From: a virus
Taxonomy: Duplodnaviria; Heunggongvirae; Uroviricota; Caudoviricetes
Length of the DNA: 64,000 nucleotides
Virus record (IMG/VR): IMGVR_UViG_2579778660_000001
Direction: 5' to 3' (one strand)
The notes under the pieces: generated by a model
What the model saw: the letters and a program-made list of their open reading frames with translations, nothing else
What the model was told of the DNA's origin: nothing
The model's database searches: none
Made by a program: the position numbers and the translations under genes
In this document: piece after piece, positions 7,190-35,549 of the stretch
Layout of the letters: every line of letters starts with the position of its first letter
Numbering within the stretch: position 1 is the first letter of the stretch

Positions 7190-7222
7190 TAGGAAGCCCG
7201 CCTGGTTGAGCGGGCTTCTTTT
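7190..7222. terminator. bidirectional intrinsic terminator
   Basis: AAGCCCGCctggttgaGCGGGCTT followed by CTTTTC; between convergent 6338-7138 (+) and doc (-). Confidence 0.55.
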
Positions 7223-7602
7223 CAAATATTGGGACCAAATAATTCACGTAGTTTTTCCGCTACTGAAGATACGGGGATTTCACCAGTTGCGGCCCCCACC
7301 GCTAGTTCCACCAGCACGGGAGAATCATATACCTGTATGCCGTTACGGCGTAGAAATAGCAGCGCACTGTTTAGCGCGGTACGCTTATTGGCATCATTGA
7401 ATATATGCCCTCTCGCCGTAGCTACCAGGTAGGTGGCGGAGACTTCGAAAAGGTCGGTGATCTCTTCGTAGGCAACTCTGGCCTGAACTCTACCGATAAT
7501 GGCCTCTGCCCTACCCGGATCTGACATTCCCGGCAGGCCGCCGTAGCGGCTTATATTCGCATCATGAAGCGCAATAAGTTCTTCCGGTGATATATGCCTC
7601 AT
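7222..7602 (-). CDS. doc: Doc toxin (Fic-family kinase), P1-type
   Basis: 126 aa; Fic motif HIFNDANKR; close to P1 Doc as recalled. Confidence 0.9.
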
Positions 7603-7823
7603 TATCGGTTAACCAGTTCCTTGTTGGTGGAGTCCAGGGTGTCAAACAGGGATGCAAATTCAGCATCCAGCGCCGCTTTTTTGTAGGCTTCAAAAGTAGC
7701 CTTGCTGACAATTACTGCTGGCTCTCGGCCTCTGCGGGTGATTTCAACCTCTTCCCCGGCTTCAACATTGTTGAGCACTTCAGAAAGGTTGCCGCGCGCG
7801 GTACGGAAGTTAATGGATTGCAT
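7602..7823 (-). CDS. phd: Phd antitoxin, P1-type
   Basis: [49 protein letters not shown]...; ATG at 7823 with GAGGTG RBS; ORF track start (7829) is an upstream GTG. Confidence 0.9.
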
Positions 7824-7895: not shown

Positions 7896-8285
7896 TTAAA
7901 TCACCGGACAATCGTCAAATTCCCCACTTCGGACATCATTGATGACATGAGTGATCACACCAAAAACAGCATTACTCCCCGTGCATCCATCGTCATCCAC
8001 TGGTAACGCCTCTTTCCTCCCGGTGCTTAAATCCTCCAGGTGCTGGCGCGGATACTTCCTGTATCTCTTTATGCGATATTCACCCTCCATAGCGCACACA
8101 AGCAGAGAACCATCAACCGGAGTAAGCGAGGAATCAACCACCAGCAAAGCACCCTGCAATATTCCCTCACGGTGATGGCTATCAGCTGCCCGCATGAAGT
8201 AGGTTGCTGATGGATGCCTGATTAGTTGCTGATCAAGAGAAATTCGGCTTTCAACATAATCCGCCGCAGGAGAAGGGAAGCCCAT
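7896..8285 (-). CDS. humD: HumD (UmuD'-like S24 peptidase-fold protein)
   Basis: 129 aa; LexA/UmuD C-terminal-domain-like sequence; LexA box immediately upstream. Confidence 0.75.
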   Translation of the reverse strand: MGFPSPAADYVESRISLDQQLIRHPSATYFMRAADSHHREGILQGALLVVDSSLTPVDGSLLVCAMEGEYRIKRYRKYPRQHLEDLSTGRKEALPVDDDGCTGSNAVFGVITHVINDVRSGEFDDCPVI

Positions 8286-16532: not shown

Positions 16533-16837
16533 TTTGTTTTCTCCTGTCTGAACATCACTATCATCAGGTCGCCTTTTGTCGCTATCCTCGCTGTTGTGCC
16601 TGGTTCAATGCTGCCAAGTTCAAATGCGTCATAGAACGCTTCTAATGCCTTCTGGCGTAGTTCCTGTTTGCGCCGTTTTTTCCACTGTTTCAGGAAAATG
16701 GAACCCAGCCATCGCCATGTACGGGACATGATGAAAAACCAACCGAGAAGTGCCAGACCGGTATTCAGGAGCGTATCGATCGTTATTGTCGTGTCGATAT
16801 TCACTGGCTGCTTCCGTTGCGAATCTGTTCCGCCCAT
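16529..16837 (-). CDS. hypothetical membrane protein (102 aa)
   Basis: One TM segment (LLNTGLALLGWFFIM) then basic stretch. Confidence 0.45.
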   Translation of the reverse strand: MGGTDSQRKQPVNIDTTITIDTLLNTGLALLGWFFIMSRTWRWLGSIFLKQWKKRRKQELRQKALEAFYDAFELGSIEPGTTARIATKGDLMIVMFRQEKTK

Positions 16838-17733
16838 TCTTCAAGGGATTTCTCCGCATATTCACCGGACAGGCCATCAAGCGGATGCGGTTCATTAGCC
16901 AACTCTTCTTTCGCTGACAAAATCATGCGTGTAACGTCGAAAACTTCACGCAAAGACTTATTGATAAATCCGTGATTGAACGCAGCAGCAAGACGGCTTG
17001 CGGTGTAGTTAATCCCCTCGTTGCGTGCCTCCGCACGTACTTCAGCCAGGAAAGCGTCGGTTGCTGGGGTGTCGATATTAGGCAGAAGCGCATAATCGCA
17101 AATCGTATCGATCGCAGGATCACAACAGTCATCCTCGTTGCGTGGTCGTTCGCCAACCTTCGTTGACGATTGCATGATGATTCCCCAGCAAATACTATCG
17201 ACCTCTTCGCTCCATCCATCGCAAGCATCACCGCGATAGTCGTCGATTGCAGCCTCAGCCGATTCGATAGCTTCCTCAGCAGTTTTGTGCCATTCGAAAT
17301 TATGCTCAGAGCCATATGAGAAATATGAATGTCCCGCCTTCAGCCCCGCATTCTCCGCCGCCAGCGCCGCGCAATTACCCTCCAGCTCTGCAATGCGCTG
17401 TTTTGCGGCATCAAGTTCAATCGATAATTTTTCCAACTGCTCTTTATGCTTCTTGTATTCCTGATATGCGTGCCAGGACTGACCTTTGCGCACACTATCA
17501 GTAATATCAGTAATCTGTTCTGGTGTTAGCGTGGTCAGTGGCTGTGCTGGGAAAATCAGCACTTTCCCGGAATCCCAATCAAAACCAGCGTGAATTGACT
17601 GAACCTCAACTGAAGGTGTTGAACCAATGCTGCCAGGCGAATGAACAACGATCGTTACATCCATATCGCGACGATGGCTGTGGTTGTTGGACAAAATACG
17701 ATTCACCAACTCAGAAAATTTGGAAAATTTCAT
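16801..17733 (-). CDS. hypothetical protein (310 aa); C-terminal domain paralogous to 18537-19046 product
   Basis: ATG at 17733 overlaps upstream stop (ATGA); shared [11 protein letters not shown]...[10 protein letters not shown] domain. Confidence 0.55.
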
Positions 17734-18053
17734 GCTGATTCCCTTTGATCTTCCTGGATAATGTTGTTGCAATCTTTCACGCACTCGTTGCAGATGAAAG
17801 CGTTGTCCCCAGCAATTAACTTTTTAACGGTGTGCTGGGATTTGTTGCAGAAGCTGCAATAAAGCGTTGGACTGGCTGATACGGATGGTGCGCCAGATGT
17901 CAGCCGCGCGATGTCGTTCTTGCGACGCAATATCACACGGCTGCACTCAACCAGCATCTCCGGGGATATACCCTCCTCCGTGGCGAGCGCCTCCAGACGT
18001 TCGAGCAAGCGAAATACTTTTTCCTGGGTGATTGCATAATGCGATGTGGTCAT
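17730..18053 (-). CDS. ClpX N-terminal zinc-binding-domain-like protein (no AAA+ module)
   Basis: [39 protein letters not shown] vs ClpX ZBD (LYCSFCGKSQHEVRKLIAG...ICDECV, as recalled); ATG at 18053. Confidence 0.65.
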
Positions 18054-18054
18054 C

Positions 18055-18540
18055 TCACTCTCCTTTGATGCGAATGCCTGTTGCAATGCTGTTTATGATG
18101 CTGTCAGTGCATGGGGTAGAAAGCTGGGCATCTCCAGCAATTTTCATGACATCAACATCTGCATATCGAATACCGAGGTGTATCAGACCGGCTATACCTG
18201 ACTTAAGCCGAGCATTTTCCATAAACAGATCCTTTGCCCGCTGTTTTTCTGCCTCAAGCTCAACGCGCAACTTCCCTACCGTTAGCGCAATATCCTCGTT
18301 CTCCTGGTCGCGGCGTTTGATGTACTGCTGGTTTCTTTCCCGTTCATCCAGTAGTGCCAGCACGGTTTCTGGTCCGGCCAGAAATTTGAAGGCGTTGAGC
18401 GCATCAATATCCACACCGTAATCTTTAAGTTCCTGTTCACTTAACAAATCATCATCAGCTGGCAACATTAACAGGCGTTCCATTGCTGGAATTGCACGTT
18501 CCGCCGCCTCACGCAGTGCCTGATAATCAATCTTGCTCAT
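18055..18540 (-). CDS. Ea22-like protein (161 aa)
   Basis: Ends ...[10 protein letters not shown]; conserved 24-bp junction sequence at 3' end. Confidence 0.6.
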
Positions 18541-19046
18541 TGGATGACTCCTTTACGAAGCTGTTCGGCGATATCTTCGAGAACGCCATCAGAGAATGAG
18601 CGGTCAAAATCGCCTTCCGGCGCATTAGCCATAAACTCAGTAGAGGTAAGAATCATCCGGGCAATATCCGCGGCGTTCTTCGCAGTATCATCAATAAAAC
18701 CAGCTACCCAGGCAGCCAGCATTCTGTTCGCCACAAAGTAAGCGCCCTCCTTGCGTGCTTCAGTCTTCACTTCATCCAGGAAAGTGTCGGTCGCAGGAGT
18801 AGTTTTTTGTGGTGATAGGGCGATACGAATTGTTTCAAGAGCTGGATCTATTTCCACTGTTGGCACCTTGATAAAACCAAGCTGCACGCCATTCATAATG
18901 AACGTGCGGCGATCCTCACATATCGCCTTCAGTCTCGCATTCTCCGCAGCCAGCGCCGCGCGCTCTTTCTCAAGTCGGGAAATTTCCGTTACATACTCAG
19001 CGTTACGCTCTGCCAGTTGTGCGGGCGTTAAACCTTCAGACTTCAT
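18537..19046 (-). CDS. hypothetical protein (169 aa), paralogue of 16801-17733 C-terminal domain
   Basis: Shared C-terminal domain; N-terminal coiled coil. Confidence 0.55.
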   Translation of the reverse strand: MKSEGLTPAQLAERNAEYVTEISRLEKERAALAAENARLKAICEDRRTFIMNGVQLGFIKVPTVEIDPALETIRIALSPQKTTPATDTFLDEVKTEARKEGAYFVANRMLAAWVAGFIDDTAKNAADIARMILTSTEFMANAPEGDFDRSFSDGVLEDIAEQLRKGVIQ

Positions 19047-20157: not shown

Positions 20158-20187
20158 TGTTAGAAAATCAATTTTGATTTTCTAACA
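20158..20187. promoter_or_regulatory. 30-bp perfect palindromic operator between divergent operons
   Basis: TGTTAGAAAATCAATTTTGATTTTCTAACA, two inverted copies of core motif. Confidence 0.65.
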
Positions 20188-20190
20188 TGT

Positions 20191-20808
20191 TTGATCAACC
20201 ATAGCGGCTATGTAGACAAACCGGGTATTTCTATGAAGCAAAGCTATTGGGAGAAACAGACACAAAAAGCCCTGCAAAAACTGGCTGATCCGAAATGGCG
20301 GGAGGAACAAAGGGCAAAGCGTCTTCAGCAAGCTCAACGCCAGCAGCAGCGTGCGCGAGAAAAAGCCGCATCGCCTGAATATCGGCAAAAGAAAATTGAA
20401 AAAGCGAAGCAATATGAACAGCGAAGAAAAGAGAAGGCCGCTTCTGCTCCTGTCAAAAAAACTCGCGCGTCACGCGGCCTGAAAGGCAGAACACTCACAG
20501 CAGATGAGCGCCGGATACAAACTGCCATCGGTGCTCTCCCCTGCATTGCCTGCCATATGCACGGACAGCATAGCCCTGTGGTATCCCTGCACCACATCTT
20601 CGGAAGAACAGCAGAGAACGCGCATAAATACGTCCTCCCTTTGTGTAAATGGCACCATCAACACGCAGCGCCAGCAGAGATCCGCGAGCAATACCCCTGG
20701 TTGGTTCCTGTTCATGCTGATGGAAAAATAGGCGGTAAAGCAGATTTCAGGCGGCACAATGCTGATGAAATGACGTTGTATCAGATGGCGATTGAATTGA
20801 CGAATTAG
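20191..20808 (+). CDS. ref: Ref-like HNH endonuclease (recombination enhancement function)
   Basis: Basic low-complexity N-terminus then Cys/His HNH core (CIACHMHGQHSP...LCKWHHQH); likely ATG at 20233. Confidence 0.65.
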   Translation: MINHSGYVDKPGISMKQSYWEKQTQKALQKLADPKWREEQRAKRLQQAQRQQQRAREKAASPEYRQKKIEKAKQYEQRRKEKAASAPVKKTRASRGLKGRTLTADERRIQTAIGALPCIACHMHGQHSPVVSLHHIFGRTAENAHKYVLPLCKWHHQHAAPAEIREQYPWLVPVHADGKIGGKADFRRHNADEMTLYQMAIELTN

Positions 20809-30661: not shown

Positions 30662-31567
30662 ATGAGATCAGTCGCTTTCAAAAATATCTTCATCTATCGT
30701 CTTTCACGCGAAGTTAACTGGGATACCGCAGAAGTAAATGCAGCCCTTAGCAAGTTTGTGTTTACCCCATGCGGTTCTCAGGATATGGCTAAAGCTGGTT
30801 GGACCCCAATTCTTGGCGACAACCTCACCCATGAATACCAGGGTTTTCTTCTGATGCAGCATAAACGAGAGGAAAAAATCCTGCCTTCTCAAGTACTCAA
30901 AGAAGAGTTACAGAAAAAAATCCTGAAACTTGAAGAAGAGCAAGACAGAAAGCTGAAGAAGACCGAAAAAGATTCGCTGAAGGATGAAGTGCTTCACTCT
31001 CTTCTTCCTCGCGCTTTCACGAGAAAATCAGTCGCTAAAATCCTGATAGACCGAAGCAATCATCTGGTTTTTGTCGAGGCCAGCAGTGCTAAAAAAGCAG
31101 AGGATCAGCTGGCTTTGTTACGGAAATCGCTTGGCAGCTTGCCCGTTGTCCCCTTCTCTCCGAAAGACCCATTAGAACTGACCATCACTGGCTGGATTAA
31201 AGATGGCTTCCCGAACGGTTTCCGTGCTGGTGAGGAAGCGACTTTAAAAGCATTGCTTGATGATGGCGGCGCGGTCCGCTGCAAAAAAGTGGACCTGCTA
31301 TCCGACGAGATCATGAGTCATATAGAAGCTGGTAAGGTTGCAACCACAGTTGCGGTTAACTGGCAAGACCGTGCATTTTTCAGACTGAATGACGATATGA
31401 GTATCAAGGCTTTGTCGTTCAGCGACGAATTGTACGACCAAAACGACGATATTGATCGAGAGGATGTAGCGCAACGATTTGACGCTGACTTTATCCTGTT
31501 TACTGCTGAATTATCAGCCATGTTCACTTCGCTAGTGGAGGCCGTTGGTGGTGAAGCAGAACGTTAA
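30662..31567 (+). CDS. rdgC: RdgC-family recombination-associated protein (divergent from host copy)
   Basis: 301 aa; [66 protein letters not shown]. Confidence 0.75.
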
Positions 31568-33839
31568 CCTTAGATATGGTTCTGTTTGCAGTGGAATTGA
31601 AGCAGCGAGCATTGCCTGGGAACCGTTGGGTATGCGTCCGGCGTGGTTTGCTGAAATCGAGCCTTTTCCATCTGCCGTTCTTGCGCACCGCTGGCCCCAT
31701 GTCGCCAACCTTGGCGATATGACAAAACTTGCCAAAAAAGTCCTGGCTGGGGAAATCGAATCCCCTGATGTGCTCGTCGGGGGAACACCTTGTCAGGCAT
31801 TCAGTATCGCGGGATTACGTGGTGGGCTTGATGATGAGCGTGGCGCGCTAACTTTAAAGTATGTGGAGCTTGCAAATGCAATTGACGACAAACGGGCTGA
31901 GTCATTTCTCAAACCAGCCGTTATCGTCTGGGAAAATGTCCCAGGAGTCTTGTCATCGGCAGATAACGCCTTCGGATGTTTCCTTGCCGGATTGGCTGGA
32001 GAAGATGCGCCATTCGAACCAGGTGCTCGACCTGAATCACGAAAAAGTAACGCGTTCTGGCGGTGGGATGTCAAAACCAGTTGCCATGCTCCAAAGTGGC
32101 CGCAGTGTGGTTGTATTTATGGACCGCAGCGAAAAGTGGCCTGGAGAATCCTTGATGCCCAATACTTCGGAGTGGCACAACGACGCCGACGCGTGTTTGT
32201 TGTCGCAAGTGCTCGAACAGACCTCGATCCCGCAACGATACTTTTTGAGTTCGAAGGCGTGCGCCGGAATATTGCGCCGAGCCGAAAAAAGAAGGAAATC
32301 GCTTCCGCCATTATTGCAAATGGCGCTGCAATCAGTGGCGAAAGTCTAAATCCATGCCTACACGCTGACATGCCCCCCGGTATGAAATCGACGAAAGCCG
32401 TAAACGCTTTCAGGATGGCGGCATTTGGGGAATATATTGACGATGAAACCGCATCGACAGTAAAGGCAAGAGACTTTAAAGATGCCACTGACCTTGCCGT
32501 TTTTAGCAGCACAGGAGCAGGTTTTTGGTCAGAGGGGCATGGTACATTGCGGGCGCGTGAGCAAGAAAGCCATGAGCATCTTGTTACATTAGCTTTTCCT
32601 GAGCATATGAGCGGTACACAACATGCTGCAACTAAGAATACTTCACCATCTCTAATGGCTCAAAATCCAACAGCCGTTTGCTATGAAGCAAGAAACGCAA
32701 AAGTAGCTGTTCGCCGTCTTACCCCTGTCGAATGTGAAAGGCTGCAAGGTTTTCCTGATGGGCATACGTTGATCCCTACGGAAAAGCGTAAAACAATTTC
32801 CTCAGATGAACTGGCATACCTTCGCAATCACTATCCAGATTTAAGCGAAGAAGAGGCCGCGATGCTCGCTGCTGACGGGCCGCGTTACAAAGCGATTGGC
32901 AACAGCATGGCAGTTCCTGTTATGCAATGGATTGGGTGTTGCATTCTTGCGACTGTGGAAGCTAAACAGCCAAAAACAATAAATACCATTACCTACACAA
33001 GAATACTCCGGACTCCGGATGAATATGAGCGTCCGATCTTCAAATGGGTAGGAGGTAAATTCTCAGAGTTACCTACAGTGCTTGAGCATCTACCACACGG
33101 CAAGCGGTTAATAGAACCATTCGTTGGTGGCGGTTCCGTATTTACGAATGCAGGATTTCGCCACAACCTGCTTAATGATATTAACGGTGACCTGATTAAC
33201 TTCTATCAGACATTGCAGCGAGAAGGACATTCGCTCGTCACGCTGTCATATAGTTTTTTCCAAAATTACAACAACGCTGACGCTTACCTCGAAGTGCGTG
33301 AGGCATTTAACAGAGGAAAGTATGACCAGCTACATCATGCTGCCGCCTTTTTGTACCTTAATCGGCACTGTTTTAATGGCGTAACGCGGTACAACCAAAA
33401 TGGCGAGTTCAACGTGGGGTATGGCAAATACAAAGCGCCCTACTTCCCACATGCAGAGATGGAGGCATTTTTGGCTGATGACGTACTCAAAAACACGTCC
33501 TTTGTATCAGGTGACTTTGCTGGCGTCATCGAGGCGGCTGGTGAAGGCGATGTGATTTTTTGCGATCCGCCGTATGAACCGCTGCCGGATACAGAAGGGT
33601 TTACCAGTTATTCAGGAAATAGCTTCCGTTTCGACGAACAGAAACGGCTGGTATCTCTATTGGTGGAAGCCCACCAGCGCGGCGCTAAGGTAGTGATTAC
33701 AAATAGTGGTGCGCCAAACATCCGTGAACTATATGAAGGAAACGGGTTTAAAGTACATCATATGGCAGCCAGACGGTCGGTTTCCTGCAAGGCGTCAACA
33801 CGTGTAGTTGCTAACGATATAATTGCAATAATGAAGTAA
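31548..33839 (+). CDS. dmt: bifunctional DNA methyltransferase (N-terminal C5-cytosine MTase + C-terminal Dam-like N6-adenine MTase), P1 Dmt-like
   Basis: [12 protein letters not shown] and ENV in N-half; Dam-like [14 protein letters not shown] and DPPY in C-half; GTG start after GGAGG. Confidence 0.85.
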
Positions 33840-33887: not shown

Positions 33888-35549
33888 TTAACCTAACTTC
33901 GCCCAGGTATCACGCAGCCCAACGGTGCGGTTAAATACCGGTTTTTCCGCCGTAGAATGGCGGCTGTCGAGGCAGAAATAACCTTCACGCTCAAACTGGA
34001 ATGCTTTACCAGCTACCGCTTCTTTCAGCGACGGTTCAGCAAAGCCCTGTTTGATCACCAGCGATTCCGGGTTAATCACCGACAGAAAATCATCCGCAGC
34101 ACCTGGGTTCGGTACACTGAACAGACGGTCGTACAGGCGAATTTCAACCGGCAGCGCATGGGCCGCGCTTACCCAGTGGATAACGCCTTTCACTTTACGA
34201 CCATCTGCCGGATCTTTGCTTAAAGTATCGGCATCGTAGGTACAGAAGATGGTGGTGATATTGCCTTCGGCATCTTTCTCCACGCGTTCAGCCTTAATGA
34301 CGTAAGCATTACGCAGACGCACTTCTTTACCCAGCACCAGACGTTTGTACTGCTTGTTAGCTTCTTCGCGGAAATCGGCGCGGTCGATCCAAATCTCACC
34401 GCTAAACGGCACCTGACGGCTACCCATTTCCGGTTTGTTCGGATGGTTCGGCATGGTGACCATTTCGCCTTCGCCCTGGTAGTTTTCGATAACCAGTTTC
34501 ACCGGATCGATAACCGCCATTGCGCGCGGCGCATTTTCGTTGAGATCTTCACGGATGCAGGATTCCAGCGACGCCATCTCAATGGTGTTGTCCTGCTTGG
34601 TCACGCCGATGCGTTTGCAGAACTCACGAATAGAAGCCGCAGTGTAACCACGACGACGCAGACCGGAAATGGTCGGCATACGCGGGTCATCCCAGCCTTC
34701 AACGTGCTTGTCGGTCACCAGCAGGTTCAGCTTACGCTTGGACATCACAGTGTATTCCAGATTCAGGCGCGAGAATTCGTACTGGCGCGGGTGAACAGGA
34801 ATGGTGATGTTGTCCAGCACCCAGTCGTACAGGCGACGGTTGTCCTGGAACTCAAGCGTACACAGAGAGTGCGTAATACCTTCCAGCGCATCGCTGATGC
34901 AGTGGGTGAAGTCGTACATCGGGTAGATGCACCACTTGTTGCCAGTCTGGTGGTGTTCAGCAAACTTAATGCGGTACAGCACCGGATCGCGCATCACGAT
35001 AAACGGCGACGCCATGTCGATTTTCGCACGCAGGCAGGCTTTACCTTCTTCAAAACCACCGGCACGCATTTTTTCGAACAGCGCCAGGTTCTCTTCAACG
35101 CTGCGATCGCGGTACGGGCTGTTTTTACCCGGCTGCGTCAGGGTGCCGCGGTATTCGCGGATCTGTTCCGGCGTCAGTTCGTCAACATACGCCAGGCCTT
35201 TGTTGATCAGTTCAACAGCATAGGCGTGGAGCTGATCAAAATAATCGGAGGAGTAACGGACGTTACCAGACCAGTGAAAACCTAACCATTCAACGTCGTT
35301 TTTAATCGACTCGACGTACTCGATATCTTCTTTTACCGGGTTAGTGTCGTCGAAACGCAGGTTGCACTGGCCTTTATAGTCCTGGGCGATCCCGAAGTTC
35401 AGGCAGATAGATTTCGCATGACCAATATGCAGATAGCCATTCGGTTCCGGCGGGAAACGGGTATGTACTGTGGTGTGCTTACCACTTGCCAGATCTTCAT
35501 CGATGATCTGACGAATAAAGTTAGTCGGGCGGGCTTCTGCCTCACTCAT
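33888..35549 (-). CDS. glnS: glutaminyl-tRNA synthetase, host-type
   Basis: 553 aa; essentially E. coli GlnS as recalled ([20 protein letters not shown]..., HIGH, VMSKR); higher GC than flanks. Confidence 0.9.

Follow-up and report, generated by a model that had tools for sequence, protein, structure and literature searches.

The 64,000-nt stretch of viral DNA analysed here (IMG/VR record IMGVR_UViG_2579778660_000001, Caudoviricetes; hereafter the window) is a D6-like, P1-type phage-plasmid whose closest records are Escherichia coli plasmids of 90-97 kb. On its minus strand, at 17730-18053, lies a gene for a 107-residue protein (~12 kDa, pI ~6.1; TGA stop at 17730-17732), which we could confirm to be a bona fide ClpX-type zinc-binding domain (ZBD) joined to a helical hairpin, with no motor attached. 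The sequence and the list of open reading frames bear out exactly the coordinates and length that an initial annotation, made from the letters of the window, had given for this frame. A Shine-Dalgarno sequence, AAGGAG, is found at 18060-18065 (minus), inside the 3′ end of the upstream gene and 6 nt before the ATG at 18053. An ORF finder also proposes a 118-residue form starting at a TTG (18086), which has no ribosome-binding site; RefSeq uses the shorter form, and we favour the ATG because of the placement of AAGGAG.

The ZBD occupies residues 63-106 (17736-17867, minus) and is identified by Pfam PF06689, by matches to ClpX ZBD entries in the PDB and by Foldseek. PF06689 (zf-C4_ClpX) is the sole Pfam match in the protein, spanning residues 65-101 and profile positions 2-39 of 39 at 63.4 bits (cut-off 27; E 1.8e-17). 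A phmmer search against the PDB returned ClpX chains only, led by 1OVX and 2DS5 (E about 1e-14). When aligned with the N-terminus of host ClpX (E. coli K-12, NC_000913), residues 64-107 match ClpX residues 13-56 at 28 of 44 positions without gaps, and the segment between the outermost cysteines matches at 26 of 39. The four predicted zinc ligands (17781-17858, minus) fall in register in this alignment: Cys66 (17856-17858), Cys69 (17847-17849), Cys88 (17790-17792) and Cys91 (17781-17783) are the equivalents of ClpX Cys15, Cys18, Cys37 and Cys40 (numbering with Met1), with the spacing C-x2-C-x18-C-x2-C identical in both proteins. Among 22 family members examined, which contribute 21 distinct ZBD sequences, all four cysteines are invariant (21/21). 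The domain had been described as reproducing the ClpX ZBD almost residue for residue; the homology is as claimed, while the real degree of identity is 64-68%.

Structural prediction agrees with this assignment. The AlphaFold2 model of the protein has a mean pLDDT of 81, rising to 87-90 in the ZBD, where the predicted fold is a treble clef of beta-hairpins followed by a C-terminal helix. Foldseek superposes this part of the model on 2DS5, 2DS6 and 2DS8 within 0.5-0.6 Å over 38 columns, and the first PDB structure other than ClpX to be matched is a LIM domain at E 0.66. We could therefore rule out that the similarity is limited to a generic C4 zinc ribbon, as all significant sequence and structure matches are to the ClpX ZBD. 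An antisense frame at 17846-17923 (plus) also reads C-x2-C...C-x2-C; this is a mirror artefact of the reverse-complementary codons TGC and GCA and not a second zinc finger. No further ORF with a C-x2-C...C-x2-C pattern is present elsewhere in the 64-kb window.

Two corrections to the described architecture follow from these coordinates. The ZBD, which had been placed at the N-terminus, is in fact C-terminal, behind a hairpin and a linker, and the protein is not ZBD-only, since residues 8-52 form a second conserved domain (17898-18032, minus) of two helices (residues 10-26 and 31-52). This hairpin accompanies the ZBD in every family member and has no recognisable partner-binding fold. Between the two domains, residues 53-62 (17868-17897, minus) are predicted to form a flexible linker (pLDDT ~57, without secondary structure); this is the most variable segment of the protein and also serves as a recombination joint in mosaic relatives. 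The absence of an AAA+ module, by contrast, was correctly noted. The ClpX unfoldase models of NCBIfam (TIGR00382 and NF003745) reach only 41-46 bits against cut-offs of 359-371 and align over profile positions ~5-50, and Pfam finds no ClpX-like AAA+ module in the adjacent genes, which are Ead/Ea22-like. Only two Walker-A-like matches occur in the window, ~4.4 kb and 16 kb from the ZBD gene.

The gene family is already annotated publicly, so the sequence finding, which had been presented as a discovery, is not new: RefSeq names the gene 'ClpX C4-type zinc finger protein'. The RefSeq entry WP_087758025.1, from the AR_0119 plasmid, differs by one residue (99.4% DNA identity), and a 100% identical protein is present on one IMG/VR contig. 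In PHROGs the protein belongs to a family of unknown function, phrog_6797 (E 2.5e-54, with residues 1-106 aligned to positions 1-106 of the 107-position profile). Phage D6 orf93 (79% identity) and phage P88 gp19 (47% identity) are family members by tblastn. Both are recorded as 'carboxylate--amine ligase', which is also the former name of the RefSeq family; we found no ATP-grasp or glutamate-cysteine-ligase-type domain in the 107 residues, which match PF06689 only, and the name seems to be an error copied between records. No match to a known defence system was obtained in PADLOC-DB 2.0 for the ZBD protein and four neighbours at E up to 0.01. Full-text literature searches found neither experimental work nor speculation on this protein or on stand-alone phage ZBDs in general, and one match, on motility of E. 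coli ST131, is unrelated to it.

We next consider the age of the gene and the selection acting on it. The gene and host clpX are 59% identical in DNA, and only 41% of third codon positions match, which is near saturation. The ZBD gene is therefore an old lineage rather than a fresh clpX fragment. A blastn search with the gene against 5426 complete E. coli genomes likewise failed to match host clpX, so that a recent capture from the host is ruled out. Across 13 alleles, a parsimony count of nonsynonymous to synonymous changes per site gives ratios of ~0.42 (hairpin) and ~0.41 (ZBD), and both domains are maintained by purifying selection. Between subfamilies the architecture is kept even where synonymous sites are saturated, and all loci examined have an intact frame and a strong ribosome-binding site.

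Superimposed on this constraint is a small set of variable positions. Residues 28 (in the hairpin turn), 74 (the equivalent of ClpX His23), 84, 94 and 97 have each accumulated 6-10 nonsynonymous and 0-2 synonymous changes among the 13 alleles by a crude parsimony count (codons at ~17970-17972, 17832-17834, 17802-17804, 17772-17774 and 17763-17765, minus). These sites, one of which is the His23 equivalent, may reflect diversifying selection. Similarly, the window and D6 alleles are near-identical except in codons 83-102, where ~10 nonsynonymous and 2 synonymous changes separate them (pairwise omega >1). We rejected positive selection on the whole ZBD, as the window/D6 counts are too few for significance and the 13-allele mean is ~0.4. 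The pattern is suggestive of surface diversification at a few sites, in numbers too small for a claim.

The same blastn search located the ZBD gene in 195 of the 5426 E. coli genomes, about half of the copies on plasmids and half on chromosomes, corresponding to ~3-4% of sequenced E. coli genomes. The family is carried by three backbones, D6/P1-like plasmids, lambdoid prophages and P88-like P2-family phages, and its two-domain architecture is fixed. Subfamily 1, which includes the window protein, is found on all three. In D6-like plasmids its gene follows an Ead/Ea22 gene; in lambdoid prophages it also follows an Ead/Ea22 gene and lies between the replication genes and nin/Q-type genes; and in P88-like P2-family prophages the order is gene A, ParM, StbB, ZBD, Ead/Ea22, portal. 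Subfamily 2, ~50% identical in the hairpin, is found in P88 itself and in other P2-like elements directly after gene A, and its ZBD is closer still to that of ClpX (AGPSVYIC.ECVDLCN). In the lambdoid and P2-family elements the ZBD gene is co-oriented with the early/replication operon, downstream of the replication genes and separated by short gaps. The gene content of the window itself includes phd/doc, a HumD-like S24 peptidase, ParM, a Cre-like recombinase, ref and icd-type genes.

The genes immediately flanking the ZBD gene are of Ead/Ea22 type. Upstream is an Ead/Ea22-like gene (18055-18540, minus; Pfam PF13935, E 6.4e-33) whose TGA ends 1 nt before the ATG at 18053. Downstream is an Ead/Ea22-related gene (16801-17733, minus; matches to phrog_368 and phrog_614, with a RefSeq equivalent named ead/Ea22-like) whose ATG (17731-17733) overlaps the TGA of the ZBD gene as ATGA at 17730-17733. 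This stop/start spacing with both neighbours indicates that the ZBD gene is translationally coupled to them within a dense operon on the minus strand. While the flanking genes match the Ead_Ea22 profile (PF13935) or carry that annotation, the ZBD protein itself gives no match to it. Together with the gene at 18537-19046 (minus), the two neighbours form a set of mosaic Ead/Ea22-type paralogues with the common motif AAENA(G/R)LK. Other phages carry reading frames in which the ZBD gene is preceded, in frame, by the first ~20 codons of the 18537-19046 gene, and in some relatives (P0022, P0024) an Ead-like coiled coil is joined to the same linker and ZBD; such in-frame fusions place recombination joints within reading frames. 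On each of the three phage backbones, the ZBD gene is accompanied by an Ead_Ea22 gene (L003, L005, L011, L027-L031).

The operon that contains the ZBD gene runs from ~20116 to beyond 14217 and is divergent from a ref-like nuclease gene at 20191. In the intergenic region between the two, at 20160-20185, is a perfect 26-bp palindrome, TTAGAAAATCAATTTTGATTTTCTAA, which occurs once in the window and resembles an operator. The 64-kb window contains no match to the P1 C1 operator consensus, and a scan for sigma-70 promoters was uninformative, yielding fewer sites than shuffled controls. Because these operator and promoter scans gave nothing usable, the timing of expression is read from gene order, which suggests early lytic expression as the likeliest.

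Several other genes of the window were also noted. At 33888-35549 (minus) it encodes a full-length, 553-residue glutamine--tRNA ligase with the catalytic and both anticodon-binding domains, and glnS is annotated likewise on the related plasmid NZ_CP021537. A 764-residue protein that combines a C-5 cytosine methylase domain with a Dam-type N6-adenine methylase domain is encoded at 31545-33839 (plus), adjoined by an rdgC homologue at 30662-31567.

To relate the phage ZBD to ClpX function, we compared it residue by residue with the ligand sites described for ClpX in PMC7804408 and PMC8808172. Mutagenesis and NMR place the site for the MqsA degron and the SspB tail at L12, L13, H23, K27, I29 and A30 (numbering with Met1; PMC8808172), with His23 needed to bind both ligands (PMC8808172), while F16 and I46 (numbering without Met1) form a hydrophobic pocket for trigger factor, lambda O, SspB and RssB (PMC7804408). 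The phage ZBD keeps L13, H23, K27, I29 and A30, as well as F16 and I46. Across the 21 distinct family sequences F16 never changes, and position I46 holds Ile or Val in 19 of them. In the window allele P31-S32 has become Asp-Asn, and the His23 position is occupied by H, Y or T among alleles. ClpX L12 is Thr in the window protein, which together with the hypervariable His23 position suggests that the ligand range of the phage ZBD probably differs from that of ClpX. In our reading of the sequence, the phage domain would keep the fold and the core of the peptide groove, and probably also the dimer, but it would be adapted to fewer, or other, partners than ClpX.

Together, these observations lead us to favour, with a probability of roughly 0.45, the interpretation that the protein mimics the ClpX N-domain in trans and thereby changes the N-domain-dependent substrate choice of ClpXP. 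The ClpX N-domain docks SspB, RssB, UmuD and trigger factor, as well as the substrates lambda O, MuA, FtsZ, UmuD′ and zinc-free MqsA. That the protein competes with host ClpX for its adaptors or substrates, as first proposed, is biochemically plausible because purified free ClpX ZBD supplied in trans inhibits N-domain-dependent degradation in vitro, specifically the RssB-dependent degradation of sigma-S by ClpXP (PMC7226468). We envisage that temperate enterobacterial phages would make this small accessory protein from a tightly packed operon early in lytic development. Through its ZBD the protein would bind partners with peptides that dock on the N-domain (adaptors with tails like those of SspB, RssB or UmuD; substrates resembling lambda O, MuA or MqsA), would pair with the N-domain of ClpX itself, or would do both. 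The hairpin might add oligomerisation and avidity or contact a phage-specific partner, and the outcome would be a shift in the set of proteins degraded by ClpXP during phage development. For the phage protein we infer zinc binding, dimerisation, binding of ClpX partners, the effect on proteolysis and the timing of expression. As a guess, candidate clients on the same replicon would be Phd and the UmuD′-like peptidase, and in the lambdoid and P2-type elements the replication initiators encoded upstream. The window carries a phd/doc pair and a HumD/UmuD′-like S24 peptidase at 7222-7823 and 7896-8285 (both minus), which represent known classes of ClpXP client; Phd of P1 is a ClpXP substrate (PMC4963847).

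In favour of such a mimic stand the specific homology to ClpX, the kept groove residues, purifying selection and the presence of the architecture in three lineages. Motor-less ZBD proteins have also arisen in unrelated phages, which we count on the same side: Caulobacter phage Cr30 and Pseudomonas phage PP9W2 each encode one, and phrog_12435 and phrog_5259 are further examples. In Cr30 a ZBD-only ORF of 72-79 residues lies at 2486-2725 (L006), where the record gives just a 41-residue gene, and the 65-residue motor-less ZBD protein of PP9W2 is annotated 'Clp protease'. Some metagenomic proteins consist of 2-4 tandem ClpX-type ZBDs and nothing else (P0039, P0044, P0045, P0046, P0052).

A number of observations weigh on the other side. 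For the phage protein and its relatives, binding of ClpX partners or a role in degradation is a proposal drawn from sequence, and early expression is likewise read from gene order, the promoter scan being uninformative. The Thr at L12 recalls the ClpX L12S mutant, which is defective for the MqsA degron (PMC8808172). The ClpX N-terminal tail (D3, K4), which moves upon ligand binding, is missing from the phage protein. Furthermore, G18, H22, E23, P31, S32, L42 and D45 (numbering without Met1), which are nearly invariant in ClpX as judged from a small sample of 9 distinct N-terminal sequences, differ freely from one phage protein to another, with Asp at L42 in the sub-lineage of the window; consequently, only part of the ClpX partner set can be common to both. 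The conserved hairpin is superfluous for a bare decoy and argues for a more specific function. Finally, the ZBD fold is put to unrelated uses outside ClpX: cyanobacterial sigma factors carry it as an accessory domain (PMC11119718), and the anti-sigma factor CsfB is structurally similar (PMC5890618).

These last points bear on a possible, though not probable, alternative in which the ZBD acts independently of ClpX as a zinc-stabilised module for dimerisation or protein binding, working with Ead/Ea22 or another phage or host partner, for example in the balance between lysis and lysogeny that is attributed to Ea22. Such a role would fit the adjacency to Ead/Ea22 genes in three phage types, the natural mosaics (P0022, P0024) that fuse an Ead-like coiled coil straight to the linker and ZBD, the freedom with which many ClpX-invariant surface positions vary, and the precedent of ZBD-type domains in non-ClpX proteins, namely CsfB (PMC5890618) and cyanobacterial sigma factors (PMC11119718). 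Lambda Ea22 has moreover been linked to lysogeny in the literature. The adjacency may, however, just mirror a common mosaic accessory region, and the phage ZBD is far nearer to ClpX (64-68% identity) than CsfB is (~20%). A pure dimerisation module would also not need the surface groove residues H23, K27, A30, F16 and I46, which are kept, and the P2-type subfamily retains the ClpX-like AGPSVYIC.ECVDLCN. We find it effectively refuted, by the selection and conservation data, that the gene is a non-functional, drifting remnant of a captured clpX 5′ end, an explanation of negligible probability. A small gene in a highly mosaic accessory region, with pseudogenes in the same region of related plasmids, could suggest decay, but ratios of ~0.4 in both domains, the intact frame with its ribosome-binding site, an architecture that has outlasted synonymous saturation and merely 59% DNA identity to host clpX all speak against it.

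Two further proposals assign the protein a more active part in proteolysis, and we regard both as unlikely. In one, it would be a recruiter (a phage-specified adaptor) or a dominant-negative subunit that forms mixed dimers with the ClpX N-domain or occupies the adaptor site; the hairpin, tethered in this way to the ClpX ring, would deliver a particular protein of the host or of a competing phage for degradation, or access to the pore would be blocked. Dimerisation of ClpX N-domains is obligate and uses a helix and hairpins (PMC7226468, PMC5890618), and the hydrophobic residues of these elements (V24, I28, V33, I35, V40, C43 and I47, numbering without Met1) are conserved in the phage family. 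A conserved second domain on a flexible linker is also the typical layout of a tethering adaptor, and the hypervariable surface sites could mean that targets are switched. Against recruitment, the high stability of the ClpX ZBD dimer would make exchange difficult; a heterodimer of phage ZBD and ClpX is a proposal, and the hairpin shows no recognisable partner-binding fold. The other, equally doubtful, is that the phage specifies a specificity subunit of ClpXP, with the ZBD pairing with or replacing the ClpX docking domain while the hairpin and the variable groove sites (the equivalents of ClpX His23, Ser32, Leu42 and Asp45) select allele-specific targets. If this were true, temperate phages would re-aim or blind ClpXP with respect to antitoxins, replication initiators and factors of rival phages in an arms race, and mimicry of an unfoldase recognition module would be a new viral takeover of bacterial proteolysis.

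Returning to the N-domain mimic that we favour, its interest lies in the reach of the protease. ClpXP determines how stable phage replication initiators, transposases, antitoxins, sigma-S, and SOS and division proteins are, and much of its selectivity passes via the N-terminal domain copied by the phage gene. A natural motor-less copy of this domain in three unrelated temperate-phage backbones thus provides a test case for rewiring the substrate choice of an AAA+ machine in trans. If the protein does act as a mimic, unfoldase domain mimicry would join the short list of phage anti-protease strategies and would offer a selective tool for blocking just the N-domain-dependent substrates of ClpXP. 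If ClpXP is instead untouched, the ClpX ZBD fold would have a second life as a free-standing phage interaction module.

Among known systems, the closest is the E. coli ClpX ZBD itself (PDB 1OVX, 2DS5-2DS8), with which the phage domain shares the Cys4 spacing, 64-68% identity, a predicted fold within 0.6 Å and most groove and pocket residues. It differs in being off the AAA+ ring and C-terminal after a hairpin, without the ClpX N-terminal tail, in the window allele's substitutions of Thr for L12, Asp-Asn for P31-S32 and Asp for L42, and in the hypervariability within the family of several ClpX-invariant sites. Recombinant free ClpX ZBD (PMC7226468) is likewise a motor-less ZBD acting in trans, and its inhibition is the activity proposed for the phage protein; it is, however, a laboratory fragment of ClpX used at 5-20 micromolar, whereas the phage protein is a diverged natural gene product with an extra domain, known from sequence. 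Earlier work of the Houry laboratory with free ClpX ZBD as a competitor is cited in PMC7804408. The Bacillus subtilis anti-sigma factor CsfB (Gin; PDB 5N7Y) is more remote: with ~20% identity to ClpX and other dimer contacts its relatedness is doubtful, whereas the phage domain is clearly homologous to ClpX. Within the family (D6 orf93, P88 gp19, RefSeq and phrog_6797) the two-domain architecture is common to all, and the window allele is set apart by the helix variant KDCNNIIQE, with nothing else substantial differing.

Phages and hosts modulate AAA+ proteases by other means as well. The phage modulators include T4 PinA and T7 Gp4.5 (both against Lon), SPO1 Gp53 (on ClpCP), and RexB and cIII of lambda; among anti-adaptors, IraM and IraP are of the same class as IraD. 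Like these modulators and the anti-adaptor IraD (PMC7226468), the phage ZBD protein would be a small non-enzyme that redirects or blocks a host ATP-dependent protease. The known modulators and anti-adaptors, however, are unrelated folds that bind the protease or its adaptor, whereas the phage ZBD would copy the protease's own docking domain.

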